Assembly (NCBI GenBank): GCA_934119955.1
Contig: CAKOSZ010000007.1
Span: 5,192 to 69,191 of the forward strand
Length of the DNA stretch: 64,000 nucleotides
Reading direction: 5' to 3'
From: an uncultured Bacilli bacterium
Lineage (GTDB): Bacteria; Bacillota_I; Bacilli_A; RF39; UBA660
In this document: positions 6,723-52,882 of the stretch, in pieces
Layout of the letters: each line of letters opens with the position of its first letter
Numbering within the stretch: position 1 is the first letter of the stretch
The notes under the pieces: generated by a model
The model's database searches: none
What the model saw: only the letters and a program-made list of their open reading frames with translations
What the model was told of the DNA's origin: nothing
Translations under genes and position numbers: made by a program

Positions 6723-6741
6723 AAAATTTGTAAATATTTAT

Positions 6742-6770
6742 TGACAATAAACTAATTAAATGTTATAGTT
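6742..6770 (+). promoter_or_regulatory. sigma-A promoter of the tRNA operon
   Basis: TTGACA, a 17-nt spacer, then TGT-TATAGT (extended -10), about 19 nt upstream of the first tRNA. Confidence 0.6.
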
Positions 6771-6788: not shown

Positions 6789-6865
6789 GGGCGATTAGCT
6801 CAGTTGGTTAGAGCACCTGCCTTACAAGCAGGGGGTCATAGGTTCGAGTCCTATATCGCCCACCA
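6789..6865 (+). tRNA. tRNA-Val(UAC)
   Basis: Hand-folded cloverleaf: acceptor GGGCGAT/ATCGCCC, anticodon loop CTTACAA, encoded CCA. Confidence 0.85.
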
Positions 6866-6873
6866 TTATTAAT

Positions 6874-6949
6874 GCCGAAATAGCTCAATTGGTAGAGCAA
6901 TTGATTTGTAATCAATAGGTTACGGGTTCGATTCCTGTTTTCGGCACCA
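6874..6949 (+). tRNA. tRNA-Thr(UGU)
   Basis: Acceptor GCCGAAA/TTTCGGC, anticodon stem ATTGA/TCAAT with loop TTTGTAA, CCA. Confidence 0.85.
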
Positions 6950-6953
6950 TGAT

Positions 6954-7037
6954 GGAGAGATAGCGAAGTGGCTAAACGCGACAGACTGTAAATCTGTTCC
7001 TTCGGGTTCGATGGTTCGAATCCATCTCTCTCCACCA
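6954..7037 (+). tRNA. tRNA-Tyr(GUA)
   Basis: Type II tRNA: acceptor GGAGAGA/TCTCTCC, anticodon loop CTGTAAA, long variable arm, CCA. Confidence 0.85.
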
Positions 7038-7043
7038 CGTTAT

Positions 7044-7118
7044 TGCCTCGTAGCCAAGTGGTAAGGCACGAGACTTTGACTCTCGCATGCGCTAGTTCGA
7101 ATCTAGCCGAGGCAACCA
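7044..7118 (+). tRNA. tRNA-Gln(UUG)
   Basis: U1:A72 acceptor TGCCTCG/CGAGGCA, anticodon loop CTTTGAC, CCA. Confidence 0.8.
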
Positions 7119-7130
7119 TTTTTGTATTAT

Positions 7131-7206
7131 GTCCCGTTAGCTCAGTAGGTAGAGCATTTGACTTTTAATCAAAGGGTCGTGAGTTCGAATCTCGCACGGG
7201 ACACCA
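7131..7206 (+). tRNA. tRNA-Lys(UUU)
   Basis: Acceptor GTCCCGT/ACGGGAC, anticodon loop CTTTTAA, CCA. Confidence 0.85.
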
Positions 7207-7215
7207 TTTATTTGT

Positions 7216-7662
7216 GCCTGAGTGGCGGAATAGGTAGACGCACAGGACTTAGAGCCAAAAAGGCTTTGAGCACTAGTGTTGGAAACACGCTAAGTGAATT
7301 TGCTCAAATTCGGGGAAACCTTCCAGATAACGCTGATGGCAATCCCGAGCCAAGATTTACGGAGGTAGTTGTTGGATTTTTCAAGTTGTATTAGCATTAT
7401 ACGTTTAAGTAAGTGTTTTATTGTTAAGATAGTCATTTGAAAAATTTGTTGCTATTATGTCCAAATTGTCATGCTATGACTGTTGGATATAAAAATCGTA
7501 AATAAGGTGTAGAGACTTAATGGGCAATACCTAAGGATTTATAATCTATGGTAAAGAGAAAGTCCGGACTACAAACACTTTTGTGGTAGTGAAAACTATG
7601 GTAGTAAGAAAATCCTGCGAGCATCAAAACTCGTGTCGGTTCAAGTCCGACCTTAGGCACCA
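7216..7662 (+). tRNA. tRNA-Leu(UAA), interrupted by a group I intron (exons 7216-7250 and 7609-7662)
   Basis: 5' exon GCCTGAGTGGCGGAATAGGTAGACGCACAGGACTT. 3' exon AAAATCCTG + variable arm CGAGCATCAAAACTCG + T-arm GTCGGTTCAAGTCCGAC + CTTAGGC-A-CCA. The joined anticodon loop is CTT|AAAA, giving anticodon UAA. Confidence 0.85.
7251..7608 (+). ncRNA. group I self-splicing intron (trnL-UAA type) at anticodon position U34|A35
   Basis: P1 pairing CTT|AGAGCC with GGCTTTGAG places a U.G wobble at the 5' splice site, and the terminal nucleotide is G. AATTCGGGGAAACC (P) and AATCCCGAGCC (Q) form P4. GGCAATCCCGAGCCAAG nearly matches the plastid/cyanobacterial trnL-intron motif GGCAATCCTGAGCCAA as I recall it. 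The 3' end TATGGTAGTAAG|AAAATCC resembles plastid TATAGTAAGAGG|AAAATCC. Confidence 0.8.
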
Positions 7663-7671
7663 TTTTTTATT

Positions 7672-7764
7672 GGAGGAATACCCAAGTCCGGTTGAAGGGA
7701 TCGGTCTTGAAAACCGAGAGGTCGTGCAAGCGGCGCAGGGGTTCGAATCCCTTTTCCTCCGCCA
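7672..7764 (+). tRNA. tRNA-Ser(UGA)
   Basis: Type II tRNA: acceptor GGAGGAA/TTCCTCC, anticodon loop CTTGAAA, long variable arm, CCA. Confidence 0.85.
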
Positions 7765-7781
7765 ATATATATTTTATTTAT

Positions 7782-7858
<77 letters not shown>

Positions 7859-7862
7859 ATTT

Positions 7863-7938
7863 GGTCTCGTAGTGCAGTGGTTACCACGTCTGCCTGTCAC
7901 GCAGAAGATCGCGGGTTCAATCCCCGTCGAGACCGCCA
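7863..7938 (+). tRNA. tRNA-Asp(GUC)
   Basis: Acceptor GGTCTCG/CGAGACC, anticodon loop CTGTCAC, CCA. Confidence 0.85.
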
Positions 7939-7946
7939 TTTTTTTT

Positions 7947-8022
7947 GGCTCTGTAGCTCAGTCGGTAGAGCAAGGGACTGAAAATCCCTGTGTCGGTGGT
8001 TCGATTCCACTCGGAGCCACCA
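7947..8022 (+). tRNA. tRNA-Phe(GAA)
   Basis: Acceptor GGCTCTG/CGGAGCC, anticodon loop CTGAAAA, CCA. Confidence 0.85.
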
Positions 8023-8038
8023 TTTATTTTTAGTTTTT

Positions 8039-8115
8039 GCGCTCATAGCTCAATTGGATAGAGCGTTTGGCTACGGACCAAAAGGTTATGGGTTCGACTC
8101 CTATTGGGCGCACCA
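8039..8115 (+). tRNA. tRNA-Arg(ACG)
   Basis: Acceptor GCGCTCA/TGGGCGC, anticodon stem TTTGG/CCAAA with loop CTACGGA, CCA. Confidence 0.8.
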
Positions 8116-8126
8116 TTTTATAAGTT

Positions 8127-8203
8127 CGGGAAGTGGCTCAATTTGGTAGAGCACTTGGTTTGGGACCAAGGGGTTGCAGGTTCAAATCCTGTCTTCCCGA
8201 CCA
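8127..8203 (+). tRNA. tRNA-Pro(UGG)
   Basis: Acceptor CGGGAAG/CTTCCCG, anticodon loop TTTGGGA, CCA. Confidence 0.85.
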
Positions 8204-8216
8204 TTTTATGTTAGAT

Positions 8217-8240
8217 ACAGTCAAATGACTGTTTTTTTAT
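8217..8240 (+). terminator. rho-independent terminator of the tRNA operon
   Basis: Hairpin ACAGTCA-AA-TGACTGT followed by TTTTTTT. Confidence 0.7.
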
Positions 8241-8290
8241 TTTCTTTTGTTAGAAATTTTTGTATAATATCTTTGTTAGGAAGTGATTAA

Positions 8291-18407: not shown

Positions 18408-18987
18408 ATGAAAATTTGAAAAGATAAAAAAAATAATTTTTTTTTAAAAAAAAGTGTTGACATTTGTCACATATTATGGTAAATTATAATTGCTTGGTAA
18501 GATAACAAACTTGATAATAATTGTTTGACTATATAATATTTATTCATTGGAGTATTTATTATATTTATGGACTCATATTTATTCTTATAGAATATTTATT
18601 GATAGTCTTATAAGTTAATTGAGTTTAACTTATTTGTAGGCTTTATGCCTTATAGAATAATTGACTTTATTCTTTAACCTTTTTAGGTTTTTTGTATTAT
18701 TGATTTAATACTAATTTTATGAAAACAATTATTTGGTTGAGTGTTATGTTGGTATGAAAAGGTATATGGAAATATACTCATTATCGCCACCAAGTAGGAC
18801 AATTGTTTTGAGAGGAGAAAACTCAAAGATAAGTTAGTTGTAATAAACACTGATAATGTTTATTAAATATTAATATTATCTAAACAATAATATTAATTGC
18901 TACAACTATTTTCAAAACTCGCATAAATAGTTTTATCAGAACTATTTATTTTTTTTGGTTTATTAACATATACTTTACTGGTGGTAT

Positions 18988-19680
18988 ATGTTTTTAAGTA
19001 TTATAAATTTTTTAAAAGAATTATTCTTTTTTACAGGTAGTTATTCTAATAATATTTTTCCAGATCCCCTAACTGATGAAGAAGAGGAAAAATGTATTAA
19101 AAAAATGCAAAATGGAGATAAGGAAGCAAGAAATAAGTTAATAGAACACAATTTAAGATTGGTTGCCCATATTGTAAAGAAGTTTGAACATGATATAAAT
19201 ATTCAAGATGATTTAATAAGTATAGGTACAATAGGACTTATTAAAGGAATAGATACATATTCAAGTAATAAAAATGTTAAATTAACTACATACTGTGCTA
19301 GGTGTATTCAAAATGAAATCTTGATGTATTATAGAAGTAATAATAAATATAATAAAAATATTTCTATAAATGATAGTATAGGTTATGATAAAGATGGAAA
19401 TGAAATAACTATAATTGATGTTTTAAAGTCTGATAAACCAGATTTTGCTCTTGATTTGTATGAAAAAGAAAATATTAGATTACTAAGTGAATATGTAAAA
19501 GTTTTAAATAAAAGAGAAAAAGAAATAATAACTTACCGTTATGGTTTAAATAATAATGATGAATTAACACAAAAAGAGATTGCTAAGAAATTACATATTT
19601 CAAGAAGTTATGTTTCAAGGATTGAGAAAAGAGCACTTACAAAGATGTTAAGAGAATTTATAAAAAATAAACAAGATTAA
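18988..19680 (+). CDS. sigK: sporulation sigma factor SigK (pro-sigma-K, uninterrupted)
   Basis: Near-identical blocks to B. subtilis SigK: pro-sequence ...NNIFPDPLT, then ARNKLIEHNLRLVAHIVKKFE, LISIGTIGLIKGIDTY and HISRSYVSRIEKRALTKM. A CATATACT -10-like element sits ~17 nt upstream, consistent with a SigE/SigK-type promoter. Confidence 0.85.
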   Translation: MFLSIINFLKELFFFTGSYSNNIFPDPLTDEEEEKCIKKMQNGDKEARNKLIEHNLRLVAHIVKKFEHDINIQDDLISIGTIGLIKGIDTYSSNKNVKLTTYCARCIQNEILMYYRSNNKYNKNISINDSIGYDKDGNEITIIDVLKSDKPDFALDLYEKENIRLLSEYVKVLNKREKEIITYRYGLNNNDELTQKEIAKKLHISRSYVSRIEKRALTKMLREFIKNKQD

Positions 19681-19715
19681 TATATAAATGATTAAAAAGA
19701 CGTATTAAAAAGAAT

Positions 19716-19746
19716 AAAACTATTGAAATAAAATAGTTTTTTTTGT
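19716..19746 (+). terminator. rho-independent terminator of sigK
   Basis: AAAACTATT-GAAATAA-AATAGTTTT followed by a T-run. Confidence 0.7.
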
Positions 19747-19763
19747 ATAATTTAGGTATAAGT

Positions 19764-19792
19764 TTGACAAAAAGTGTAAAATATGATAAAAT
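19764..19792 (+). promoter_or_regulatory. sigma-A promoter of the first gene of the T4SS-like block
   Basis: TTGACA, 17 nt, then TGA-TAAAAT (extended -10). AAAGGAG lies 9 nt before the ATG at 19821. Confidence 0.55.
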
Positions 19793-19820
19793 ATGGCCAA
19801 TTAAAAAGGAGTGGGATAGT

Positions 19821-21575
19821 ATGGAAGAACAATTAAAAATGTATGATGAAATATTTAGAGTAGTAGGGGAGAGTTTAGAAGAAAAACTTACTAAACTTAA
19901 TTATGAGAATTATGAAAAATTAGATTCAACAGACCTAGGCAAGGAAAAAAAGAAGAAATTTAATGAAAAAATAGAAGAATATTTTTCTATGTATAGGGAT
20001 ACAACTCGTCGTGATAGTACAGAACCAGGTTATGTTGCTTTTAAGGAAAAATTAAGCTATTTAAATAAAAAGCTAAAAGATGAAGGAAAAGATCAAATTG
20101 AAAATGCAGAGGACTTCTTCAATTTTAAAAAGAAATTAGAAGAAGAAAAAGAAAAAGAAAAACATGATACACCTAATGATGAAAGTAAGAGTGATGATGC
20201 ACCAAAACACGTGGATACTGAACCTAGTAAAAAAATGCCTGATAAAAAAGGAAAAGTAAATAGTTGGTGGGCTGAAAATATCAAGCCAACTGTAAAACGT
20301 TGGATGAAGTTTGTTGGCGGTGTTGCTGGAGTTGCACTTCTTGCTTCTAGTATTGCTGCTCCTGGGAATATACCATTATTGTTACTTTTGTCCGGTGTTG
20401 TAGAAGGAGTATTACTAGGTGTAAAAGAATTACCAACTGTTATTAAATTTGTTACGTTGCTTCCACGTAAAGGAATAGATTTTATTAAGTCGTTAAAAGA
20501 AAAGAGCAAGGAAAAACAAAAAGGAAAGAAAAAGAATAAAAAAAGAAAAAAACAAAAAAGTAATTCTAGTTCAAGAGAATCAGTTGAAGATTATGAGAAA
20601 ACATTATCTGAAGGTATGATACATGATGATGAAAAAAAAGAAAATGATATATCTGTTGACGAAAAAACAGAAGAAGATATGACCACTGCTTTAGATAATA
20701 TACCTACCGATGAAAAATCGGAAGAAGATAAAGCAGAAGAAGATATGACTACTGCTTTAGATAATATGCTTACTGATGAAAAATCAGAAGAAGATAAAGT
20801 AGATGATATATCTACTGATGATAAATCAAAAAGTGATGTAACTCCAGACTTGCCAGTTAGCAATGCAGATATCAAAGAACAAAGAGAACAAAAAATACAA
20901 AGATTAAAGAATACAAAACAACGATTAGTTGAAGCAAAGGAAAGACTAAGAAAACAAAAAGAAGAGCAAACAAAGCAAGAAAATGGTGTTCAAGATAAAA
21001 GCGATGTTGTGACTCATTCTAGTGGAACACATGAAAATATTATTGATCGACAATTAAATGCGCTTGCTGACAATCATGTAGGGTATACAGGTAATTATGA
21101 TGAAACTGATTTAGAAAAACGTATTATAGTAGAAGATGAACTGAAAAAGCTTAATGAACAAATTGCACAACTTTCAAATTCAAGAAATTATGATGGTAAT
21201 TATGACGAGACAGAAATTGAAAAACAAGCATTGATAGAGCGTAAAAATCAATTGGAAAAATTTATTATGTCTAAAAAGAGTCCTGCAATGCAAACAGCTG
21301 TAATAGATGATGTTCGTACGCAGTCACGAATTTCAAAATTACCTTCTCAAAGTGATGATGTTGAAAAGATAAATTCAAAAATAAATGAGCTTTCAAGTTT
21401 GTTAGGTAAGTCTAATTATGTTCCAGAAGCAGAAAAAAATAAAGATAAAGAATATATTGAATTGTCAAGAGAATTAGAAGAATTAAAAAAAACAAGAGAA
21501 AAAATAATACAACAAAAAAATATTGAAAGCATACAACAATCAGAAAATCAAGAAGAATTTAGTAGGAAAATGTGA
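19821..21575 (+). CDS. membrane-anchored coiled-coil protein with a lysine-rich linker and acidic tandem repeats (T4SS-associated, unknown function)
   Basis: Central TM helix (VGGVAGVALLASSIAAPGNIPLLLLLSGVV), a KKKNKKRKKQK stretch, two 22-aa EEDMTTALDN... repeats, and a long heptad-rich C-terminal region. The ORF track's start at 19743 lies upstream of the promoter, so the start is taken at 19821. Confidence 0.45.
   Translation: MEEQLKMYDEIFRVVGESLEEKLTKLNYENYEKLDSTDLGKEKKKKFNEKIEEYFSMYRDTTRRDSTEPGYVAFKEKLSYLNKKLKDEGKDQIENAEDFFNFKKKLEEEKEKEKHDTPNDESKSDDAPKHVDTEPSKKMPDKKGKVNSWWAENIKPTVKRWMKFVGGVAGVALLASSIAAPGNIPLLLLLSGVVEGVLLGVKELPTVIKFVTLLPRKGIDFIKSLKEKSKEKQKGKKKNKKRKKQKSNSSSRESVEDYEKTLSEGMIHDDEKKENDISVDEKTEEDMTTALDNIPTDEKSEEDKAEEDMTTALDNMLTDEKSEEDKVDDISTDDKSKSDVTPDLPVSNADIKEQREQKIQRLKNTKQRLVEAKERLRKQKEEQTKQENGVQDKSDVVTHSSGTHENIIDRQLNALADNHVGYTGNYDETDLEKRIIVEDELKKLNEQIAQLSNSRNYDGNYDETEIEKQALIERKNQLEKFIMSKKSPAMQTAVIDDVRTQSRISKLPSQSDDVEKINSKINELSSLLGKSNYVPEAEKNKDKEYIELSRELEELKKTREKIIQQKNIESIQQSENQEEFSRKM
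20669..20800 (+). repeat. 2 x 66-bp in-frame tandem repeat inside the coiled-coil protein gene
   Basis: GAAGAAGATATGAC(C/T)ACTGCTTTAGATAATAT...GATGAAAAATC(G/A)GAAGAAGATAAAG(C/T)A is repeated head-to-tail. Confidence 0.8.
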
Positions 21576-21912
21576 ATCTAGAACATAGTAGTTATTGATA
21601 CTTACTAATGTATTGAGGTAAAATACATAGAATAATAATTAGTACAAAAATAATTAATTTGAGGGAGGTCAAATAATATTTGACTTCCTTTAATATTGCA
21701 AAAATTATCGTTGCTATAAAAATGATTTATTTATGAAGATTAATGTGTAGTGAAAAGTAGTTTAGTTGAATTATAAAATTATGATTTTTACTTTACAAAT
21801 GAAGAAAAATTTAGTAATATATTTGTGTATTTATTTAAAAAAGTTTACATTTTTGAATTGAAATGTTATACTTAAATATATAGTAATTAAATCTTTTTGT
21901 TTGGAGGTATTT

Positions 21913-24093
21913 ATGCTAATATTATCAATTTTCGATGGATTAATAGAAGGTCTTAATGATGCTTTGCGTGCTTTTTTTATGACAATTGATCAAATAGTGT
22001 ATTGGTTTATAGAAATTATTTTTCAATTAATTATGGATTTAGCAAATACAGAAATATTTACACAAACTACTATTGATGTATTTGCTAAGCGTATATATGT
22101 AATACTGGGATTAGTAATGGTATTTAAAATGATGATATCGTTTGTTCAAATTCTAATTGATCCAGATACAATGACTGATAAAGAAAAAGGTGTAGGAGCA
22201 GTTTTAAAAAGAGTTGTAATCTCATTAATCTTGATAGTCTTAGTTCCATCAATATTTTCTCTTGCAAGGGAGGTCCAATCGTATATTTTACCTGTTATCC
22301 CGAGAGTTATAATGGGAGTTAATACTCCTGATCAAGAGGAAGTAATAGAATCAAGGGTTGGAAGAATTATGGCTTGGTATTCTTTTTTGCCGTTTTTTGG
22401 TTACGAAGGAACATGTAATGATGGTTCAATTATTTCATATTATTCTGATGATGGTTCTGATATGACTTCATCTGATGTTGTTATTTCTTCTGTAAATGAT
22501 GCATATATAAACATTAATCGTAAAGATAACGAATGTGGCGGAGGAGCTTTTCATTATGTGTATAGTTATAAGTGGATTATTTCAACTATTGTAGGAGCGT
22601 ATTTATTATATACATTGGTTACCGTTGCAGTTCTTACTGCAAAAAGAGCAATTAAACTTGGAATTTGTGAATTCATTGCGCCAATTCCAATAGCAAGTTA
22701 TATCGATCCTAAAACATCTAAATCAACTTTTGATAAATGGGTAAGTACTAGTATAAAAGTATATCTTGATTTGTTTATACAGTTAATAGTAGTATACTTT
22801 GTTGCTTTTGTTTTTACTGTTATTGCAAAGAAAGAAAATGTAGCGATTATTGTTGCTAATACTGGTAGCTTTTTTAGAGCTACACTTGTTATATTATTTA
22901 TTATTGTAGGATTAGTAAATTTTGTTAGAGAATTTCCTAAATTTTTATCTGATTTATTAGGACTTGGTACAAACGGAGATATTGCCAGTATATTTAAAGG
23001 TGCTGGTTGGAAACAGGTTGGTGGAACCTTGGCTGCGCCTGCAGCTGCTATAAGTGCTGGGCTTTCAGCATCTAACTATTCTAGAAGAAAAGGTGAACCT
23101 GCTCTTAAAGCAGTCGGTAGAGGATTAAGTGCAGGATTTAGAGGTGCGTCGGCATCATTTGGGGCAGCAAGTAGTGGCAAAGGGTTAAAAGAAGTTTATG
23201 GAACTCGTGAAAAGGTTCATGGTGCTTCAATGAGAAGAATTAATAGAGCATATGCAAAAAGTCAACAAAAAGATGATTATAAAAAACATATGAAAATTTA
23301 TCAAGAAGCACAACCAGAATTAGAAAATGCAAGAAGTAATCTTCTTGAAAGTAGACAAGCTGCAGCAGAGTCTTGGAGTAAATATATAGAAGCGAGAGAA
23401 AGAGGGGATAATAACGCAGCGAATATACATAAAATGGATTATGATAATTTTAAATCTGCGGAAGCTCGTTATCAAAAGGAAGTTGAAAAATTGGAGGCAA
23501 TAAAAAAACCTATTCGTCCTACTTCATATGGCATTGGAAAAGCATCTGCAATGGCTAAAAGTTTTGTAGGAACACCTGTTCCAGATTCTAAAACGTATAC
23601 AGAAGCCGCTAAAATTATGATGAGCGGAAAGAAAATATTTAACGATGCTAAAGTGAAAGTTACTGACGATCCTACTTTAATTCGAGATCGATTTGAAATT
23701 AAGGATAAAAATGGTAGAAGTTATGGGGTGCATTCGTTTGCTGAGGTTTATGCAGCACATAATCAGGCAGGAATTAGTGGAAGTGCTGAACTTGATGGGG
23801 AATCATATACTTCTGCTGAATTAGAAACGATTTATGGCGAGGCCTTAAAGAAAGCAGCAACGTTATATGTTAATGGTGTACAGGAAGGAACAGTTGATAA
23901 TGGTACTATGAAGCAGGATATTAATATTTTTGAAAAGTCACTTGCAAATGAAATGATAATTGATTCTACCGATAGAGGACTTATTACTTACGATGAAAAT
24001 AGACCTGGTGAATTCCTTAAGGGTGCCGATGAAGTTGCTAGAACTTTCGATTCGCGTGCTCAAGATTTAAGAGCAGTTGAAGAAAATAAATGA
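21913..24093 (+). CDS. VirB6/TrbL-like polytopic membrane protein (PrgH/TcpH/Tn916-Orf15 class)
   Basis: At least 6 TM helices in the N-terminal two-thirds, an extracytoplasmic Cys-containing loop, and a long hydrophilic C-terminal domain. It sits immediately upstream of the VirB3/VirB4 homologues. GGAGG lies before the ATG at 21913. Confidence 0.5.
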   Translation: MLILSIFDGLIEGLNDALRAFFMTIDQIVYWFIEIIFQLIMDLANTEIFTQTTIDVFAKRIYVILGLVMVFKMMISFVQILIDPDTMTDKEKGVGAVLKRVVISLILIVLVPSIFSLAREVQSYILPVIPRVIMGVNTPDQEEVIESRVGRIMAWYSFLPFFGYEGTCNDGSIISYYSDDGSDMTSSDVVISSVNDAYININRKDNECGGGAFHYVYSYKWIISTIVGAYLLYTLVTVAVLTAKRAIKLGICEFIAPIPIASYIDPKTSKSTFDKWVSTSIKVYLDLFIQLIVVYFVAFVFTVIAKKENVAIIVANTGSFFRATLVILFIIVGLVNFVREFPKFLSDLLGLGTNGDIASIFKGAGWKQVGGTLAAPAAAISAGLSASNYSRRKGEPALKAVGRGLSAGFRGASASFGAASSGKGLKEVYGTREKVHGASMRRINRAYAKSQQKDDYKKHMKIYQEAQPELENARSNLLESRQAAAESWSKYIEARERGDNNAANIHKMDYDNFKSAEARYQKEVEKLEAIKKPIRPTSYGIGKASAMAKSFVGTPVPDSKTYTEAAKIMMSGKKIFNDAKVKVTDDPTLIRDRFEIKDKNGRSYGVHSFAEVYAAHNQAGISGSAELDGESYTSAELETIYGEALKKAATLYVNGVQEGTVDNGTMKQDINIFEKSLANEMIIDSTDRGLITYDENRPGEFLKGADEVARTFDSRAQDLRAVEENK

Positions 24094-24126
24094 TTATATA
24101 TAATTTTAGGAGTGTGATATTAGAAT

Positions 24127-24450
24127 ATGAACAATCAATATTTAATACCTGCGAATACAAAAAGGGGTCAGTTGATATTTGGTATATTTATGCTAAATGA
24201 TCTTATAATTTTTGGAATAGGAATAGGAATTACTTTACTTGCCTTAGTTATAATGTCCTTAACCGATACAATGAGTAATATTACTTCTATTTTGGCAATT
24301 CTTCCTGGATTAGTTGCGGTATTTCTTGTTTTTCCGTTTCCAAATTATCATAATATTAGAACAGCAATTGGAGAATTAATAGCCTTTTATACTAATAGGC
24401 AAAAATATAAATGGAGAGGATGGTGTGCAAGTTATGAATTCAAAGACTAA
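24127..24450 (+). CDS. small two-TM protein, VirB3/PrgI/TcpE-like
   Basis: 107 aa with two hydrophobic helices. It is placed directly before VirB4, as in Gram-positive T4SS operons. Confidence 0.35.
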   Translation: MNNQYLIPANTKRGQLIFGIFMLNDLIIFGIGIGITLLALVIMSLTDTMSNITSILAILPGLVAVFLVFPFPNYHNIRTAIGELIAFYTNRQKYKWRGWCASYEFKD

Positions 24451-25033
24451 TTTAGTTAATAACAATCAAAATAGAAATCAAAGTACTAAAAAAACAACGT
24501 CGCCTTATACAGAAGATTGGGTAAATGTTAAAGGAATTAAAGATGGAGTAATATTATTACCAAATCGTGATATGGTTACGGGTGTTAAAATTTATCCTAG
24601 AAATATATTTATTTTAGACCCAATTCAGCAAGAAAGTGTTTTAAATGCAATGAGAAATTTTTACAATTTGATGAATTTTGAATTTTGGTTAATTGTTGCT
24701 GATAGACCTGTTGATATATCAGTTTATCAATCACAACTTCAAATAATGCTTCAAAATGCAACAAATCCTGCACAAATAAAAATAATCGCTCAGGATATAG
24801 AAAAAGCCAATATGTTTATTAATAATCAAGTTGTTGATACAGAGTACTATATTTTATTTAAAGAAAAAAAACAAGATGAAATTGAACGCAAAATTCGTTT
24901 AATTATAAATGGTCTTGCAGGATGTGGACTTAATTCTAGTCAGACATCAAATGATGATTTAAGAACAATTTTAGATAATTTCTTAAATGGTGGTGTGAGA
25001 ACTGATTTTGGAACGGTGGTGTTAGAAAAATGA
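24434..25033 (+). CDS. VirB4-family ATPase, N-terminal domain encoded as a separate ORF
   Basis: Resembles a VirB4/TrbE N-terminal domain (VKIYPRNIFILDPIQQESVLNAMRNFYNLMNFEFWLIV). Its stop overlaps the next ATG as ATGA (25030-25033). Confidence 0.5.
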   Translation: MNSKTNLVNNNQNRNQSTKKTTSPYTEDWVNVKGIKDGVILLPNRDMVTGVKIYPRNIFILDPIQQESVLNAMRNFYNLMNFEFWLIVADRPVDISVYQSQLQIMLQNATNPAQIKIIAQDIEKANMFINNQVVDTEYYILFKEKKQDEIERKIRLIINGLAGCGLNSSQTSNDDLRTILDNFLNGGVRTDFGTVVLEK

Positions 25034-26817
25034 GTATATTTAAAAGTGAAATTGCTCCTAAGGGGTTACAGTTTAATTCAGGTGATTTTAGAATTAGCGA
25101 TAAGTATGCAACTATATTAACTGCCATATCTTATCCAAAATTTATTACACCAGGCTATCTTGCTGATTTAACTAATATTTCAGGTGTTAAGGTTGTAATT
25201 AAGCATATACCTGTTCCTTTTTCATTGATGCAAAAAATGATAAATAAACAAATTGCTGATTATAGACAACGTTATCAAGATGAAAAAGACAAAACTATGC
25301 AAGAAAGATATCGTCAAGAATATGAATCACTTGAGTATTTTGTTTCTATGCTTGCTGCTAATCAATCAACAATATTTGATTTTCAAATGCATATTATGAT
25401 AACTGCTGATAGCAAAGAAGAATTAGAACTAAAAAAGACAAATGTTAAAAATTATTTAGATTCTATGGAATTAAGAGCAGTTTCTCTTAGATTTGAACAA
25501 GAAACTATATTTAAATCAATGTTGCCAATTTTTCCAAAACAAAAAGTTGAGCAAAGGATTGGTACAATCATTCCATCAGTCACCGTTGCTGGAATGTATC
25601 CGTTTGTTTTTGATTCAATTAAAGATCCAGGATTATCAAATTTGATAGGCGTTGACTTTTCTGGGGGAGTAATTTTATTCAATCAGTTTTTATACAAATA
25701 TAGAAAAGAAATGAACAGAAATAATGCTAATATGATTATTCTTGGTGGATCTGGTTCTGGTAAGTCAACAGCAGCTAAATTATTACTTCGTGGCCATATT
25801 AGAAATGGTTGTCAAATAGTTGCAATTGATCCAGAAAACGAACTTGAAGATATGACAAGACTTTATGGTGGCGATGTTGTTGATCTTGGAAAAGGCGGAG
25901 CATATGGTATGATAAATCCACTTGAAGTTGTATTAGATGCTGATGAAGAAGATATTAAGCAAGGCCTTGGACATACTGTTTTAACAAGAACTCTTCAATT
26001 CTTAAAGGCATTCATGCGCTATTATTATCCTGATATTGAAGATGATGTTCAAACATTATTTAGCGAAATTGTTCAAGATACATATAGACGTTTTGAAATT
26101 GATTTTACAAGCGACTTTACTAATAAAACAAGTGAGGATTTTCCTACTTTTTCAGATGTTTATGCAACGATAAGAGGACGTTTAACATCCATGACTGAAA
26201 AAACTCATGAACGTGATATTATGGAACGTCTTGAACTTAAAATAAGACCATTTGTTCGTGAACTTAGTTATTATTTTAATGGTCATACAACAATTAGAAA
26301 AGATAGTAATTACATAGTATTCAATATAAAAGAATTAATGAATCAAGATACAAATATTAAAAATGCTTTATTTTTTAACATTTTAAAATTTGCTTGGGGA
26401 TTATGCTTAGATAGAAGTCGTGATACTATTTTAATGGTAGATGAAGCGCATGTTCTTTTAGCAGGCAAAAATGTTTTAGGTGCTGATTTCTTGGCACAGG
26501 TTCAAAGAAGAAGTCGTAAGTATAATACAGGAACCATTATTATTACTCAACAACCTACTGACTTTTCAGATCCAGAAGTTATTACACAAGGAAAAGCAAT
26601 TTTTGATAATGCATCATATTACTTAATAATGCAACTTAGAAAACAAGCGGTTGAAGATTTATCACATTTAGTTGATTTAAATGAAAATGAAATAGAAAGT
26701 ATAAAGAGATACTCGCAGGGGCAAGCATTGTTTGTATGTGGTGCAAGACGTATGCAAATAGACGTTGTTGCAACACAAGATGAACTTGATTCGTTTGGTT
26801 CAGGTGGAGGATTATAG
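25030..26817 (+). CDS. VirB4-family conjugative ATPase (C-terminal ATPase part)
   Basis: Walker A MIILGGSGSGKST, Walker B/DExD ILMVDEAH, and a CagE/TrbE/VirB4-like YPKFITPGYLADL segment. Confidence 0.8.
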   Translation: MSIFKSEIAPKGLQFNSGDFRISDKYATILTAISYPKFITPGYLADLTNISGVKVVIKHIPVPFSLMQKMINKQIADYRQRYQDEKDKTMQERYRQEYESLEYFVSMLAANQSTIFDFQMHIMITADSKEELELKKTNVKNYLDSMELRAVSLRFEQETIFKSMLPIFPKQKVEQRIGTIIPSVTVAGMYPFVFDSIKDPGLSNLIGVDFSGGVILFNQFLYKYRKEMNRNNANMIILGGSGSGKSTAAKLLLRGHIRNGCQIVAIDPENELEDMTRLYGGDVVDLGKGGAYGMINPLEVVLDADEEDIKQGLGHTVLTRTLQFLKAFMRYYYPDIEDDVQTLFSEIVQDTYRRFEIDFTSDFTNKTSEDFPTFSDVYATIRGRLTSMTEKTHERDIMERLELKIRPFVRELSYYFNGHTTIRKDSNYIVFNIKELMNQDTNIKNALFFNILKFAWGLCLDRSRDTILMVDEAHVLLAGKNVLGADFLAQVQRRSRKYNTGTIIITQQPTDFSDPEVITQGKAIFDNASYYLIMQLRKQAVEDLSHLVDLNENEIESIKRYSQGQALFVCGARRMQIDVVATQDELDSFGSGGGL

Positions 26818-26826
26818 AAGTAAAGG

Positions 26827-29397
26827 ATGGTGAGTCGTATGACAGAAAATTTTGAAAGCAAGCAACAGAATAAACAAGATATGCAAGATGCTGGTGCTAA
26901 AACGGCTCACGTTGCTGGTAAGGTAGCTGCAAGTTATTTTGGTGGAACCTTGGGAAATGTTGCTTATGATAAAATTTTTCAGACTAAACTAGGACAAAAA
27001 ATAGAACAAGGAGCTGGAAAAGTTATTTCAAGAGTTCCTGGCGTAAATAAATTAAATAAAAAATTGAATGATACAGGTGCGGTTGATGCTGCTGATAAAG
27101 CAGTTGATTTAGTTGGAGGAAAAGGAGCGGCAAAGGCTGGTAAAAGTGTGAATTCACTTCCAAAATCTGGAATTGGTGCTGCCAGTAAAACGACTAAACC
27201 ACTTGGTAGAGGCGGAAGAAAAACAACCGGTGATGGTTCAACTCCAAAAGCATTAGAAAATCGCAAAAAAGGTGGTTATGCAAAAGATTTCTTATCAAGA
27301 AATAAGACAAATAGTACCAGTAGCACAACAAGTACTGAAGAAACTTCTTCTGATACAAATAACGAAGAAGAAGAAAATGAAACAAACGAATTAGGTGAAA
27401 GTAAAGATATATTTAGTTTTGGTTTTTCTAAATTTAAGTTAAAAATTTTGCTAATTTTTGGTTGTGGTGGTTTTATTATTTTATTGTTATTAGTGCTTAT
27501 GGTAACTACTAGTATGTTTGCAACTACTGATACATCACTTGCTCCAATTTCAAGTATAAATTCTGATGAAACTCAAAATCATTATTATGATAATGAAAAA
27601 TATCCTGAATTATATGAACAGGAAATTAAATTTAATAATTCGATTGGTAATAAAGAATCATCTAGTGGAATAATTGGTGAATACCAAGATAAGTATGGGG
27701 TAACACTGGATGTTTATATGTTAGAAGCAACTTTACTTTATAGAGATTATGCTTATTATTTAGTACGACTTGATAATATAAGCGAAGAAGAATATAAAAA
27801 ATTAACGGAATCTGATCCAGGTTATCATCAAAAAATATATAATTTTGAGGAAGCAGCAAAATATATTAACACAGTTGCTGAATTGATGATATCATCAACT
27901 GGAGAAGGTGAATATGTAAATTATTACACTGATATAACTAAAAATGGTGAATATTATAATAAATTATTGAATAGTTCTTTTTTTACTGAGTATTATTCAA
28001 AAGTATTAGCATATGAAAAATATAGTGATCAGACAAAATTAGTTGATGAAATATTTGATTATGCTGAATTTATGCGTTATGCAGTGGAAGGAGAAAAAGT
28101 ATCTTCATATATAATTAGTGACTCTATGAAAGTTCATTTGCAAACATGTGCAAAGTATAAATATAAAATAATTAATAATATAAGTATATATGATAATCCA
28201 GCGGCAACAAATAATGAAGCAGAAGCACCTTCAATAGTTTCTTTGGTTGATTACGGGGTAGGAGTTCTTTATGGAGAACTTAGTAGTTATACAAAGAGTT
28301 ATGCTAATGGACAAGGTGATAATATGAAAGAAGGGTTAAAAGCTCTTTTAGTTGCTTCTTATAGTTTTATGCTTGGTCAAAGATCATATGGACATACTGG
28401 TCTTGATTTAAAACAGCCTGATTTGTATTATCCGACTGGTAATTGTCGAATGGTATGCTGTAATCCTAATACAAATTCTCATTATGCCAAGTATAATGGT
28501 GATAAACATGGAACTTGTATGTCAACAACTAGTTCGTCTGCTAATCATCCGGCTTTAAGTCAGGATCAATTAACTAAGCTTCGGGAACTAGTATCAGAGG
28601 TTTTTGGTGAAGTTATGGTAGAAAAAGGAGTAACTACAAGTACATTTTCTGGTTATAAAGATATTAAATATGGAAATTATTATGATTCTATAAATAATTC
28701 TGATTGTGGTGCTAATTGTTTAGGTCAAGAAGAGGCAATACAAGATTCCAAAAATGGAATGACATATCGTGAAATACTTGCTAAATACTATGATTCTACT
28801 AAATATGACATCATTAATATAAAAGAAGGATTATATGTTGAAAATGCAAATTATAGTAATGCTTCATATGATGGAAATGTTATATTTTATGATCAAGGAG
28901 ATTATAGCAAGGTTAATTTCTGTGGTCAAAGTAATAAACATATATCATCATCTGGATGTGGTGTTACATCTATGGCAATCGTTGCTTCTTCGTTTACAGG
29001 AAATAAAACTTATGATCCAGTATATATGATGAATTTGGCTTATAGTATGGGAGATTGTGGCTCAGGAATACGAGGTACAAATGCTTCTTTCTTTAAAAAA
29101 GCAGCTCAAAAACTTGGCTTTGGTTATAAGTATATTGGTAAAAAAAATGCTAGTCAAGTTGTAGATGTACTTAAAACCGGAAAATCAATGGTTATTGCTC
29201 ATATGGATAAAGGACATTTTACAGATAATGGTCATTACATAGTTTTGACGGCTGTTAATGAAAATGGTAAAGTATATGTTCATGATCCTAATAATAGAGG
29301 AAATAGTAAAAACAAGAAAACTGGAAATGGTTGGTATGATTTAGATATGATAGCAGGGGAACTCAAAAGTGGTTTTTACGTTATAACGAAAGGGTGA
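26827..29397 (+). CDS. T4SS-associated cell-wall hydrolase with a C-terminal C39-like (papain-fold) peptidase domain
   Basis: Disordered G/A/K-rich N-terminus, one TM helix (LLIFGCGGFIILLLLVLMV), a large extracytoplasmic region, then catalytic-type Cys (SSSGCGVTSMAIVASSF) and His (GHYIVLTAVNENGKVYVHDPNN) motifs. Confidence 0.5.
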   Translation: MVSRMTENFESKQQNKQDMQDAGAKTAHVAGKVAASYFGGTLGNVAYDKIFQTKLGQKIEQGAGKVISRVPGVNKLNKKLNDTGAVDAADKAVDLVGGKGAAKAGKSVNSLPKSGIGAASKTTKPLGRGGRKTTGDGSTPKALENRKKGGYAKDFLSRNKTNSTSSTTSTEETSSDTNNEEEENETNELGESKDIFSFGFSKFKLKILLIFGCGGFIILLLLVLMVTTSMFATTDTSLAPISSINSDETQNHYYDNEKYPELYEQEIKFNNSIGNKESSSGIIGEYQDKYGVTLDVYMLEATLLYRDYAYYLVRLDNISEEEYKKLTESDPGYHQKIYNFEEAAKYINTVAELMISSTGEGEYVNYYTDITKNGEYYNKLLNSSFFTEYYSKVLAYEKYSDQTKLVDEIFDYAEFMRYAVEGEKVSSYIISDSMKVHLQTCAKYKYKIINNISIYDNPAATNNEAEAPSIVSLVDYGVGVLYGELSSYTKSYANGQGDNMKEGLKALLVASYSFMLGQRSYGHTGLDLKQPDLYYPTGNCRMVCCNPNTNSHYAKYNGDKHGTCMSTTSSSANHPALSQDQLTKLRELVSEVFGEVMVEKGVTTSTFSGYKDIKYGNYYDSINNSDCGANCLGQEEAIQDSKNGMTYREILAKYYDSTKYDIINIKEGLYVENANYSNASYDGNVIFYDQGDYSKVNFCGQSNKHISSSGCGVTSMAIVASSFTGNKTYDPVYMMNLAYSMGDCGSGIRGTNASFFKKAAQKLGFGYKYIGKKNASQVVDVLKTGKSMVIAHMDKGHFTDNGHYIVLTAVNENGKVYVHDPNNRGNSKNKKTGNGWYDLDMIAGELKSGFYVITKG

Positions 29398-30089
29398 ATA
29401 TGAAAAAAATATTATTTTTGCTTCCTTTGATTTTTTTAATAACAGGTTGTAGAGTTAATTATAAACTTGAAATTAATAAAGATTTAACTGTTACAGAGAA
29501 AATTAATATGAGCGAGTCAGCAGAATTTTTTTCTAATAGATATAAAGAATTACCAAAAACAGTAATTGACTCGTTATTTAATTCGGGAAATCGTAAACAA
29601 ACTTTAATTGATAACAATTACGAGTATGAAGATTCTAAAATGAATAATTATCCTGCTATTTTAGCAACTAAGCATTATTCTTCTTTAGAAGATTTTTCTA
29701 AAAATACTATTTTTAAGAAAGAATTTTTTAATTCAGTAACAACTAAAATTGATAATAATTTGGTTACTTTTGAAGCAACTGATTTGGTTGAATATGATAC
29801 AGAAGATGTTGATTTATATGAGGTATCAGGTTGTAATATTTCAATAAAAGTTCCATTCGTTGTTACAAGTAACAATGCAGATAGTTATGATGCTAAGACT
29901 AATACTTATACATGGAAAATATCAAGCGAAAAACCAAAAGAAATTAAAATAACATTTGATAAAAATAAGATATATGTGTATAATATTGTCATGTATATTT
30001 CTATGTTTATATTAGCATTAATTATTTTGATAATAATAATACTTACTTTAAAAATGCGAAATAAAAATAAGATAAATAATAATTTTTAG
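29394..30089 (+). CDS. lipoprotein with a C-terminal TM anchor (possible VirB8/PrgL-class component)
   Basis: Lipobox LITGC after the signal peptide and a C-terminal TM (LALIILIIIILTL). Translationally coupled to the hydrolase (ATGA overlap at 29394). Confidence 0.45.
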   Translation: MNMKKILFLLPLIFLITGCRVNYKLEINKDLTVTEKINMSESAEFFSNRYKELPKTVIDSLFNSGNRKQTLIDNNYEYEDSKMNNYPAILATKHYSSLEDFSKNTIFKKEFFNSVTTKIDNNLVTFEATDLVEYDTEDVDLYEVSGCNISIKVPFVVTSNNADSYDAKTNTYTWKISSEKPKEIKITFDKNKIYVYNIVMYISMFILALIILIIIILTLKMRNKNKINNNF

Positions 30090-30111
30090 ATAAATGTTTT
30101 AGGAGGCATGA

Positions 30112-32463
30112 ATGAAATTAAAAATGCGTTTTGATGCAGATGATATGAAAAAATTTTTACTTATATGTTTAGTACTTTTATATATTGTTTGTATTGCTAT
30201 TTCAAATTTGTCATCAGTAACCTCAACTGGTGAATTTACTGGTTTAAATCCTCTACCAGCGTTTAGTGCTGATATGATTACGGCAACTCTTGCTTTTTAT
30301 GTAATTGCTCTTGTTGCATTATTACTTAGTTGCAAAAGTTATTTCTTTGATTTTGAAAAAGGAATAGGTTTTACAACTGAAAAAAAAGCAAGTGATGGTT
30401 ATAGTAAATGGTGTGATGCCAAGGAAATGAAAAAAGAATTAAAATTAGTTTATCCAACAGATGTTAAAACTGATGCGGCTGGTGTTGCTTTAATAAATGA
30501 TGGTAAAAAAATTTATGTTGATAATAGTGAGTATCATAATTTAGTAATAGGAGCAACTGGTTCTGGTAAAACAACTGCTATAATTTTTCCTATGATAGAA
30601 CTTCTTGCTAAGCATGGAGAGTCAATGATTTTAACCGATCCCAAGGGTGAATTATATGAAAAAAAGAGCAATATGTTACGCTCTAAGGGTTATAATATTG
30701 TACTTTTAAACTTTCGTGATCCTGGTAAAGGAAATTCATGGAATCCTCTTAGTTTACCATATAAATTATGGAAAGAAGGAAATCAAGATAAGGCAACTGA
30801 GTTACTAGAAGACTTATCAGCTAATATCTTGTATGATGAAAATAATAAAAATGGCGATCCCTTCTGGGAAAAAACATCTGCCGATTATTTTTCTGGATTA
30901 GCACTTAGTTTATTTGAAGATGCTAATGAAGATGAAGTTAATTTAAATAGCATAAGTTTAATGACAACTATTGGGGAAGATAAAATAGGTGGTAGTACTT
31001 ATATAAAAGAGTATTTTAAAGATAAAGATCCTAATAGTGCTGCTTATATAAGCGCCTCTTCTACAATTCTTGCCCCTAATGAAACTAAAATGAGTATTAT
31101 AGCAGTTTTTAAACAAAAAATTAAATTATTTGCTTCCCGTGTTAACTTGTCTGAAATGCTATCACATAGTGATTTTGATATTGGTGACATAGGTAGAAAA
31201 AAAACAGCAGTATTTATAATTATTCAAGATGAAAAGAAAACATATCATTCATTAGTTACAATTTTTATTAAACAAGTTTATGAAACTTTAATAGATGTTG
31301 CTCAGAGTAATAATGGTAAACTTCCAATAAGAACTAATTTTTTAATGGATGAATTTGCAAATATGCCGCCTTTAAAAGATGTAACTACGATGATTACAGC
31401 TGCTCGTAGCCGTTTAATGCGTTTTACTATGATTATTCAAAACTTTGCCCAATTAAATGAAGTATATGGGGAATCCAATGCTGAAACTATAAAAAGTAAC
31501 TGTGGTAATTTAATATATTTGATATCAACAGAATTGAGAGCACTTGAAGAAATTAGTAAAATGTGTGGTGAAATTAAAGTTAAAACGGGAAAAGATGAAA
31601 AAGAAAAAGAAGAAACAAGACCACTTGTTACAATAAGTGATTTACAAAAATTAAAAATGAATGAAGTTATAATTAGAAGATTTCGTATGGCTCCATTCAA
31701 AACTAAACTTACTCCCGATTATAAAATGAATTGGGGACGTACTTATAAGGAAGTGTCAACTCAAAACATAAAAGAAAGACCTAGACGTGAAGTAAAAGTA
31801 TTTAATCTTAAAGGTTACGTTGAAGCTAAGAAAAAAGAAAATAATCCATTTGGTGGGGGATTTCCATCTGGATTTGGTGGATCACCATCATTTGGTGGAG
31901 GATTTGGCTCTGATTTTTCAGATATGTTTGGAGGCATGAAAAATGATTTTCCAGCTACATCTAGACCAAGTAATGAATCTAAAATTGATGTTGATAGAAT
32001 ACTAAAAAATATTGATGCTAAAATAGCAGAACTTGAAGAAGAAGAGAAAAGATTAGATCAAGAAGATAATAAAGAAAATGATAATTCTATTTTAACAGCA
32101 CTTGAAGATGAAGATAATCAAGTTCAAAGTGTTGATAATGATATTGAAAATACTAAAAGCCAAACAAATAATAATTCTGAAATACTTCCTGATAATGAAT
32201 TTAAAAATCTTATTTCAAGCTTTGATAACGACGAATTCATTAAAAAAGAGGATAACGATAAGTTAGAGACTACGGATACTCCTCAAAATATCGATGAATT
32301 GATTGATAAAATTAAAGAACAAAGTGGTGATGAATTACTTAACAAAGTTAAAGAAGAAAATCATAATGTTAAAGAAAATATTAAACCAAACATGAATTTA
32401 GTAGAAGAAAACAAGTATAAAGAAGTAAGTGATGATGAATTTTTTGATGACTTTTTTGATTAA
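30112..32463 (+). CDS. VirD4/TraG-family type IV coupling protein
   Basis: Two N-terminal TM helices, Walker A GATGSGKTT, the family motif DPKGELY, and a Walker B region (FLMDEFAN). A Gly-rich, acidic disordered C-terminal tail. Confidence 0.8.
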   Translation: MKLKMRFDADDMKKFLLICLVLLYIVCIAISNLSSVTSTGEFTGLNPLPAFSADMITATLAFYVIALVALLLSCKSYFFDFEKGIGFTTEKKASDGYSKWCDAKEMKKELKLVYPTDVKTDAAGVALINDGKKIYVDNSEYHNLVIGATGSGKTTAIIFPMIELLAKHGESMILTDPKGELYEKKSNMLRSKGYNIVLLNFRDPGKGNSWNPLSLPYKLWKEGNQDKATELLEDLSANILYDENNKNGDPFWEKTSADYFSGLALSLFEDANEDEVNLNSISLMTTIGEDKIGGSTYIKEYFKDKDPNSAAYISASSTILAPNETKMSIIAVFKQKIKLFASRVNLSEMLSHSDFDIGDIGRKKTAVFIIIQDEKKTYHSLVTIFIKQVYETLIDVAQSNNGKLPIRTNFLMDEFANMPPLKDVTTMITAARSRLMRFTMIIQNFAQLNEVYGESNAETIKSNCGNLIYLISTELRALEEISKMCGEIKVKTGKDEKEKEETRPLVTISDLQKLKMNEVIIRRFRMAPFKTKLTPDYKMNWGRTYKEVSTQNIKERPRREVKVFNLKGYVEAKKKENNPFGGGFPSGFGGSPSFGGGFGSDFSDMFGGMKNDFPATSRPSNESKIDVDRILKNIDAKIAELEEEEKRLDQEDNKENDNSILTALEDEDNQVQSVDNDIENTKSQTNNNSEILPDNEFKNLISSFDNDEFIKKEDNDKLETTDTPQNIDELIDKIKEQSGDELLNKVKEENHNVKENIKPNMNLVEENKYKEVSDDEFFDDFFD

Positions 32464-32498
32464 AACTAATAGATTTTGCAATTTATTAGTTTTTTTCT
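32464..32498 (+). terminator. rho-independent terminator after the coupling-protein gene
   Basis: AACTAATA-(12-nt loop)-TATTAGTT followed by TTTTTTT. Confidence 0.65.
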
Positions 32499-32566
32499 AT
32501 ATAACAGTCTTGATAATGAATAGATAATTTGCTATAATGAATATATATTATAGAGGTGTTTAAGAA

Positions 32567-33994: not shown

Positions 33995-34009
33995 CAAGGG
34001 AATGATTTT

Positions 34010-35125: not shown

Positions 35126-35184
35126 GAATACTTGTCTAAAATAAATTTAAATGCTATAATTAAAATGAAAATAGGAGAGGATTT

Positions 35185-40463: not shown

Positions 40464-40540
<77 letters not shown>

Positions 40541-52256: not shown

Positions 52257-52318
52257 TTTATTATAATTAATTGTTTATTTCAAATATTTATGCTAAAATA
52301 AATTTAGAAAGGAATTTT

Positions 52319-52864: not shown

Positions 52865-52882
52865 AACTCACTAAGTCTTTTA

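Follow-up and report, generated by a model that had tools for sequence, protein, structure and literature searches.

The 64-kilobase (kb) stretch of DNA analyzed here, called the window below, contains a tRNA-Leu(UAA) gene that is split within its anticodon by a group I intron. Run with introns allowed, ARAGORN reported a tRNA-Leu(taa) at 7216-7662 with an intron of 358 nucleotides (nt) at 7251-7608, after anticodon-loop position 35, and the insertion falls between U34 and A35 of the anticodon. When the exons (7216-7250 and 7609-7662) are joined, they give an 89-nt canonical type II tRNA-Leu(UAA) with the loop CTT/AAAA (the slash marks the junction) and an encoded CCA. An earlier reading of the bare sequence (the original prediction) had proposed the same exact split by a 358-nt insert and a perfect rejoined type II tRNA, and ARAGORN's coordinates and spliced product agree with it on both points. 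From the evidence set out below, we consider it highly probable that this is a resident, splicing-competent intron of the IC3 family, located between U34 and A35 of the window's only tRNA-Leu gene. The gene has three parts:

7216-7250, + strand: 5′ exon of tRNA-Leu(UAA), comprising the 5′ strand of the acceptor stem, the D arm, the 5′ strand of the anticodon stem and C32, U33 and U34 (ARAGORN).
7251-7608, + strand: group I intron of 358 nt, probably IC3-type and of the tRNA-Leu(UAA) 34/35 family (RF00028 match, covariation, helices formed).
7609-7662, + strand: 3′ exon of tRNA-Leu(UAA), comprising A35, A36, the remaining anticodon arm, the long variable arm, the T arm, the 3′ strand of the acceptor stem and CCA.

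When a 481-nt region around the gene was searched alone, the Rfam group I model (RF00028, Intron_gpI) matched 7241-7586 over its full positions 1-253 with 67.3 bits (gathering score 50; E 4.9e-17), and the alignment contained one 136-nt insertion relative to the model, in the P6 loop. The comparison with this model had been suggested as a check alongside the original prediction, and the score is significant. Whole-window Rfam scans in gathering-score mode and in E-value mode returned no match to the intron, owing to speed filters, and ARAGORN with default settings left 7207-7671 empty and did not call the split tRNA-Leu. Two open reading frames (ORFs) of the six-frame translation cross this region: one at 7158-7394 (78 amino acids, aa) spans tRNA-Lys, the first exon and the intron, and one at 7583-7804 (73 aa) spans the intron, the second exon and tRNA-Ser. 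Since they overlap the tRNAs and the intron, neither is a gene, as had been claimed.

The split gene belongs to a plus-strand cluster of 12 tRNAs (Val-Thr-Tyr-Gln-Lys-Leu-Ser-Met-Asp-Phe-Arg-Pro) at 6789-8203, with spacers of 4-17 nt. Two elements, each identified by consensus match only, bracket the cluster:

6741-6769, + strand: promoter-like site, TTGACA, 17 nt and TG-TATAGT, agreeing with the consensus at 11 of 12 positions, 20 nt upstream of the first tRNA of the cluster.
8217-8242, + strand: terminator-like hairpin and T run, directly 3′ of the last tRNA (Pro).

The segment 6741-8242 looks like a single tRNA operon, and since a putative promoter and terminator bracket the cluster, the intron is probably transcribed as part of a precursor that contains all 12 tRNAs. 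L155 (187-2387), the Bacilli relative whose intron is shortest, has its tRNA-Leu about 2.2 kb away from tRNA-Ser/tRNA-Met; the corresponding spacer in the window is 9 nt. Among the leucine codons of 32 long ORFs, UUA accounted for 64.7% and UUG for 8.3%, together about 73%, and ARAGORN found no second tRNA-Leu gene of any anticodon within the 64-kb window. This codon share suggests that the cell depends heavily on tRNA-Leu(UAA), unless another copy lies outside the window, and the gene may well be essential.

We aligned the window with 47 tRNA-Leu(UAA) pre-tRNAs, 41 from a genome scan and six cyanobacterial ones from the supplement of Nakagawa et al. (2026; PMC13011429), to give alignment A1. 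The 41 come from species-representative genomes that match the window's own P4-P6 motif, an arbitrary sample in which all counts are lower bounds. Unguided RNAalifold recovered five tRNA stems (acceptor, D, anticodon, variable and T), which show compensatory changes and of which the anticodon stem pairs across the intron, as well as P1, P2, P3, P4, P5, P6/P6a, P8, P9.0, P9 and P9a. Compensatory changes occurred in 56 of the 79 RNAalifold pairs, which cover tRNA stems and intron helices in the 48 sequences. With P7 added as a pseudoknot and intron pairs only counted (61 pairs, 2915 cells), standard pairs filled 96.1% of the cells, compared with 31-46% in controls whose 3′ partners were slid by 1-3 columns. 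The covariation score was 0.475 versus at most 0.099 in the controls, none of 500 shuffles reached the observed values, and 39 of the 61 intron pairs showed compensatory change. P3 and P7 were each 100% paired across the 48 homologues, and the window sequence can itself form all core helices, including the P3/P7 core that the original prediction had singled out for checking:

7248-7270, + strand: P1 hairpin, CUU/AGAGCC (slash, splice site), loop AAAAA and GGCUUUGAG; read from the sequence.
7271-7296, + strand: P2 hairpin with a GGAA (GNRA-type) loop; 8 of 10 pairs changed on both sides, 94.8% of cells paired.
7300-7305, + strand: 5′ strand of P3, partner 7522-7527; six pairs, 100% paired, five compensatory.
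7310-7348, + strand: P4 with J4/5 (AAA), P5 (7319-7339) and J5/4 (CAA), the conserved P/Q core; 100% paired.
7349-7508, + strand: P6 (7349-7351/7506-7508) and P6a (7355-7361/7497-7503), enclosing a 135-nt peripheral insert at 7362-7496.
7512-7518, + strand: 5′ strand of P7 with bulged A7513, partner 7560-7565; six pairs, 100% paired.
7522-7527, + strand: 3′ strand of P3, forming the pseudoknot with P7; covariation.
7528-7553, + strand: P8 hairpin; RNAalifold and covariation.
7560-7565, + strand: 3′ strand of P7, AAGUCC; covariation.
7568-7605, + strand: P9.0 (7568-7571/7602-7605), P9 (7576-7578/7583-7585) and P9a (7587-7590/7595-7598, GAAA loop); covariation.
7608, + strand: terminal guanosine (omega-G), with the 3′ splice site after it; invariant G393 of the alignment.

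At the 5′ end, CUUAGAGCC (7248-7256) pairs with GGCUUUGAG (7262-7270), the 3′ strand being the internal guide sequence. The 5′ splice site follows U7250, which forms a wobble with G7268; this U·G pair was present in 48 of 48 homologues. P4 is formed by UCGGGG (7310-7315) and UCCCGA (7343-7348). The original prediction had drawn P1, the U·G at the splice site, the terminal G (G7608) and P4, and all of these are in place. Two pairs differ between phyla by compensatory change: G7312-C7346 of P4 is A-U in cyanobacteria, and the P7 pair 7518/7560 is U-A in the window, where most phyla have A-U and cyanobacteria have C-G. The pair G7514-C7564 occupies what we take to be the position of the guanosine-binding pair. 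A P9 drawn by hand (CUACAAA/UUUGUGG) was dropped in favor of the comparative P9.0/P9/P9a arrangement.

The closest relatives among the matches listed were three introns in Bacilli genomes, L152 (687 nt), L155 (274 nt) and L195 (677 nt). Among these relatives, P1 shows A-U versus G-C compensation, and in the P9 region UAGU/ACUA is replaced by UAAC/GUUA in L155. Their cores are about 85-88% identical to that of the window, and the compensatory changes in P1, P2 and P9a point to selection on the structure. P1 was longest in the Bacilli lineage when compared with all other phyla, with 9 base pairs (bp) and the AAAAA loop in the window (7248-7270) and 10-25 extra loop nucleotides in L152, L155 and L195 (alignment A1, columns 34-73).

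P6/P6a closes the 135-nt insert, which folds back on itself (z = -3.2). The periphery of P6 tolerates insertions in group I introns. By tblastn and nucleotide alignment, its 3′ part is what is left of a homing-endonuclease gene:

7428-7505, + strand: HNH homing-endonuclease gene remnant, consisting of the last 25 codons, DSHLKNLLLLCPNCHAMTVGYKNRK, and a TAA stop.
...GGACTTAAAATCC...: intron-less tRNA-Leu(UAA) gene, the putative target of the HNH endonuclease.

The remnant is 68% identical to the C terminus of the ORF in L152 (tblastn, E 2e-11), and its stop codon sits in the 3′ strand of P6a. The ORF is not intact in the window: in-frame stops lie just upstream of the remnant, and the part with the ELHH.NG motif is gone. 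In contrast, the P6 loops of the L152 and L195 introns each contain an ORF of 149 codons with a match to the Pfam HNH family PF01844 (25.4 and 24.0 bits; cut-off 21.4). The four Bacilli introns thus hold the gene intact (L152 and L195), as a 25-codon stub (window) or essentially lost (L155). To judge by these sequences, the series is the decay expected of an HNH gene once its intron has become fixed, and the intron lineage was probably once mobile at the DNA level.

These features suggest how the gene would be expressed. The intron would be transcribed as part of the 12-tRNA precursor and fold into its P1-P9 core. Splicing would begin with the attack of an exogenous guanosine, bound in P7, on the bond after U7250, the U of the U·G pair in P1. 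Next, G7608, the last nucleotide of the intron, would occupy the same guanosine site, and the freed 3′ OH of U34 would attack after G7608, joining the exons into the 89-nt tRNA-Leu(UAA). The 135-nt insert looped out of P6a would be left over from the HNH gene, formerly the factor for mobility at the DNA level, and the intact (677/687 nt), 25-codon and near-absent (274 nt) states would represent the decay phase of a homing cycle.

The gene could instead be a dead copy, its intron no longer splicing and its function supplied by a second tRNA-Leu(UAA) gene beyond the 64 kb of the genome in view. The endonuclease has indeed decayed, and the P6 insert contains AT-rich junk. We nevertheless regard this as unlikely. 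No core helix is broken, the U·G pair and the terminal G are in place, both exons are whole, structure has been kept through compensatory changes in four species-level relatives, and the gene is part of a compact tRNA operon. Of the leucine codons, 73% are UUA or UUG, and the window holds no other tRNA-Leu gene.

The assignment to a group I intron of the tRNA-Leu(UAA) 34/35 site, as first proposed, is supported, and homology to the intron of cyanobacteria and plastids was evident along the whole core. The sequence blocks that the original prediction likened to plant and cyanobacterial trnL introns can be found in Nostoc PCC 7120, which has CTCAAACTCAGGGAAACC where the window has CTCAAATTCGGGGAAACC, and GGCAATCCTGAGCCAAG where the window has GGCAATCCCGAGCCAAG. 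The 249-nt intron of Nostoc/Anabaena PCC 7120 has the same U34/A35 site, U·G pair, terminal G, P1-P9 arrangement, P3/P7 pseudoknot and P4/P6/P7 blocks, and has 88 invariant alignment columns in common with the window. It self-splices in vitro, as has been experimentally validated (PMC13011429). The window intron differs from the cyanobacterial one in its G-C rather than A-U pair in P4, its U-A rather than C-G pair in P7, a P1 extended to 9 bp, the HNH remnant in P6 and its low-GC Bacilli host.

The original prediction also assumed that this intron is confined to cyanobacteria and plastids, and this premise failed. Among the 120 matches listed from species-representative genomes, at least 61 were tRNA-Leu(UAA) genes split at the same site. 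Hosts among these matches included Acidobacteriota, Alphaproteobacteria, Bacteroidota, Planctomycetota, Chloroflexota and Bacilli, with Bradyrhizobium, Rhizobium, Sphingobium and Reyranella as cultured examples; most of the other matches listed were in other tRNAs, largely of Patescibacteria. Published surveys describe the same breadth. Williams (2020; bioRxiv 10.1101/2020.01.27.920355) describes 5292 tRNA group I introns with a wider distribution, and the seed alignment of that study contains a non-cyanobacterial Leu.3Ug. Nakagawa et al. (2026) reported group I introns in the tRNA genes of 18 out of 63 phyla and listed the Leu(TAA) 34/35 IC3 intron for Acidobacteriota, Bacteroidota and Cyanobacteriota (PMC13011429). 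The rarity that made the find seem surprising is thus not borne out, since members of this family have already been described from many bacterial phyla.

Across 197 conserved intron columns, identity to the window was 86-88% for the Bacilli copies, 72% for a copy from Caldilineaceae, about 63-69% for those of Bacteroidota and 60-65.5% for nine from cyanobacteria. With the 22 columns of the search motif omitted (175 columns), the values were 85-86% for Bacilli, 68% for Caldilineaceae (Chloroflexota), 58-65% for Bacteroidota and 56-63% for cyanobacteria. Cyanobacterial copies are therefore among the most distant from the window (56-65% core identity). In a neighbor-joining tree, the introns grouped largely by host phylum: the window and the three Bacilli copies formed a clade with 100% bootstrap support, the cyanobacterial copies formed a separate 100% clade, and the two lay far apart. 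The window intron was neither nested within nor sister to the cyanobacterial introns in this tree. The distance and the separate clades indicate that the window intron belongs to the same family as the cyanobacterial/plastid intron but was not recently derived from it, and the cyanobacterial or plastid affinity first proposed gives way to one with the three Bacilli genomes.

A recent lateral transfer of a cyanobacterial or plastid trnL intron into a Firmicute would account for the shared insertion site and core blocks of Nostoc PCC 7120, and the endonuclease remnant shows that the lineage was once mobile. We judge such a transfer very unlikely. Over the 175 columns, the cyanobacterial copies are further from the window than both the Bacilli copies and the Chloroflexota copy, and they form their own 100% clade; the window has the G-C pair in P4 and the U-A pair in P7, not the cyanobacterial A-U and C-G; and cyanobacteria were the closest non-Bacilli group in only 4 of 100 bootstrap replicates. 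The original prediction had offered a choice between lateral transfer and an unrecognized wider distribution. The wider distribution stands, with at least 61 copies listed; it was not unrecognized, having been published, and recent transfer from cyanobacteria or plastids finds no support. On these comparisons, the intron is a lineage resident in uncultured low-GC Bacilli rather than a recent cyanobacterial or plastid import.

The host most probably belongs to Bacillota, as had been proposed. Two separate projects deposited the three closest relatives among the matches listed (L152, L155 and L195) under the name 'uncultured Bacilli bacterium'. The tRNA-Leu exons of the window are nearly identical to those of these relatives and depart from the cyanobacterial consensus along the whole of the acceptor and anticodon stems. 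The window also encodes, at 19-38 kb, an adhesin with thioester and SpaA domains and a Gram-positive-style conjugation module. The description of the host as a spore-former drew no support from the window, in which we saw no sporulation gene among the proteins scanned (64 kb; no systematic search). If the host were not a Firmicute but, for example, a non-photosynthetic gut relative of cyanobacteria, the intron could have been inherited vertically from a cyanobacterial ancestor; a very low GC content and an origin in a gut metagenome fit several lineages. This has little to recommend it, given the Bacilli labels of the three nearest introns and exons among the matches listed, the Gram-positive-type adhesin and conjugation genes, exons unlike the cyanobacterial consensus and an intron far from the cyanobacterial copies.

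A chimeric joining of a cyanobacterial, plastid or phage fragment to a low-GC contig during assembly or binning, imaginable for a metagenome-assembled genome when related intron-bearing tRNA-Leu genes occur on phage contigs, has next to no chance of being correct: the insert lies precisely within a tRNA whose halves fit perfectly, the exons are Bacilli-like and not cyanobacterial, three other Bacilli genomes have the orthologous arrangement, and the pre-tRNA is identical at 447 of 447 positions, with the same flanking genes and the same 12-tRNA cluster, in an independent ENA metagenome assembly (L121), which rules out an assembly artefact.

Several points weigh against a resident, splicing-competent intron as we describe it. 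Splicing of the window sequence is argued from family membership. P5 of the window contains a U·U mismatch, one P2 pair is U-C in the MAFFT register (an alternative register pairs it), and the AT-rich 135-nt insert in P6 could slow folding. With 64 kb of the genome visible, a second, intron-less tRNA-Leu(UAA) gene may exist elsewhere. The non-cyanobacterial set was picked with the window's P4/P6 motif and is part of the matches listed, so that sampling was biased. The taxonomy of the host rests on the submitters' labels for the three relatives and on the Gram-positive-type surface and conjugation proteins.

Comparison with other known introns places the window copy more closely. It aligns helix for helix with Leu(TAA) 34/35 introns classified as IC3 by Nakagawa et al., and it therefore probably belongs to that subgroup. 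The Leu(UAA) 34/35 IC3 introns of Acidobacteriota, Bacteroidota and Alphaproteobacteria ('Leu.3Ug') have the same site and UUCGGGGAAACC...GCAAUCCCGAGCC core variant as the window, probably the same subgroup, and a length similar to that of the window intron minus its insert; they differ in host phylum, and their cores are 58-72% identical to it. Introns at the same loop position occur within the same phylum in Bacillota tRNA-Arg(UCU) genes (PMC13011429, Table S5; three of four rows IC3, one IB3), but these are in a different tRNA, have the core GGUAAUACCGAGG where the window has GGCAAUCCCGAGCC and are not of the Leu lineage. The IC3 intron of Azoarcus tRNA-Ile(CAU), compared by description only (PMC13168695), is compact and has the same core layout with GAAA-capped peripheral hairpins; it lies at position 36/37 of a different tRNA and has no endonuclease remnant.

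Nakagawa et al. tabulated 4934 complete genomes; their entries for Bacillota are Arg(TCT), Asn(GTT) and Ile2(CAT), with no Leu(TAA) among them (PMC13011429). The Bacilli host lineage and the placement of the endonuclease in P6 may be unreported so far; Firmicute cases are possibly counted in Williams (2020). The family is known from many bacterial phyla, and the window adds a host lineage and not a new kind of element.

HNH genes accompany tRNA-Leu(UAA) introns elsewhere as well. Nakagawa et al. reported one in a Bacteroidota tRNA-Leu(UAA) intron (PMC13011429). The HNH-bearing introns of Bacteroidota (GCF_021484805.1, 731 nt; L181 and L236) and of phage contigs L024, L040 and L083 belong to the same intron family as that of the window. 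Their HNH proteins are of the same family as the Bacilli ORFs, with 40-52% identity over the aligned stretch, E values down to 1e-43 and the common motif ...LELHH.NG...N..LLCPNCH...; the L181 and L236 matches cover the ORF in part. The Bacteroidota and phage introns carry the gene 5′ of P3/P4, in the P1-P2 region, whereas the Bacilli lineage carries it in the P6 loop, where the window retains 25 codons only.

Viral contigs held at least 120 matches to a broad P4-P6 pattern. Nine of the 120 listed were in tRNA clusters whose tRNA-Leu(UAA) gene is interrupted at the same position by a related group I intron (examples are L024:501-1359, L040:5298-6108, L083:2128-3120, L092:842-1122, L018:7600-7882 and L104:4114-4437). 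Three viral tRNA-Leu(UAA) introns were 727-906 nt long and carried the HNH family found in the Bacilli introns (40-44% identity). The GC content of L024 is 24.9%, similar to that of the window. A blastn search of deposited phage genomes gave a sole match, at 72%, which came from an uncultured phage and covered a portion of the core.

Free-standing HNH genes of the same family lay 23-70 nt downstream of the intron-bearing tRNA gene in other viral contigs (L019:2784-3562, L078:751-1529, L091:746-1528, L041:186-980 and L080:4575-5355) and, on the opposite strand, in a Saprospiraceae contig (L139:180-961). Comparison of these loci indicates that the same endonuclease family occupies the P6 loop, the P1-P2 region or a position beside the gene, depending on the lineage. 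ARAGORN labeled some of the HNH-adjacent tRNAs Tyr(ata) or Ser(aga), probably because of misplaced splice sites. Two viral contigs (L104:3526-5058 and L042:12957-13868) held up to three intron-containing tRNA genes in one cluster within 1.6 kb, called by ARAGORN as Arg(tct), Leu(taa) and 'SeC(tca)'. A larger claim, namely that this is the first documented Bacillota lineage of the tRNA-Leu(UAA) intron, with three stages of the homing cycle and a P6-borne HNH gene, and that phages shuttle the intron between phyla, is possible, and we put it forward as a tentative and somewhat doubtful proposal.

Outside the tRNA cluster, 18772-37794 resembles a conjugative element, with a GC content of 28-33% compared with 20-25% elsewhere in the window. 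At its start, a PGK RNA motif (RF03040, 58.2 bits) lies directly upstream of a sigma-70-family gene (18988-19680). The genes that follow encode a VirB4-like ATPase (25030-26817), a protein with a C39-like peptidase domain (26827-29397), a VirD4/TraG coupling protein (30112-32463) and the thioester-plus-SpaA-domain adhesin (35185-37794). The element could have an integration boundary at a tRNA-Arg(tct) gene, 40464-40540. Large ORFs of 610, 730, 866, 808 and 806 aa (19743-24093 and 49656-59620) had no Pfam or NCBIfam match at E <= 1e-4.

The window leaves knowledge of how such introns work unchanged. It provides a new low-GC Bacilli host lineage for the trnL(UAA) intron, and the phylogeny shows that this copy is not recently derived from cyanobacteria; a Bacilli copy bears on the question of antiquity versus mobility in the distribution of the intron. 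The split tRNA-Leu(UAA) gene is also a concrete case of a known blind spot in annotation: as both default ARAGORN and genome-scale Rfam miss it, the genome would seem to be without the tRNA for about 73% of its leucine codons. The series of HNH states, together with the presence of the same family in different loops and beside phage tRNAs, offers a small testable system for the endonuclease-driven spread of tRNA introns. If it is true that phage tRNA-Leu genes shuttle the intron and its endonuclease, the 'ancient, vertically inherited' trnL intron would be partly mobile, with a reservoir in phages.

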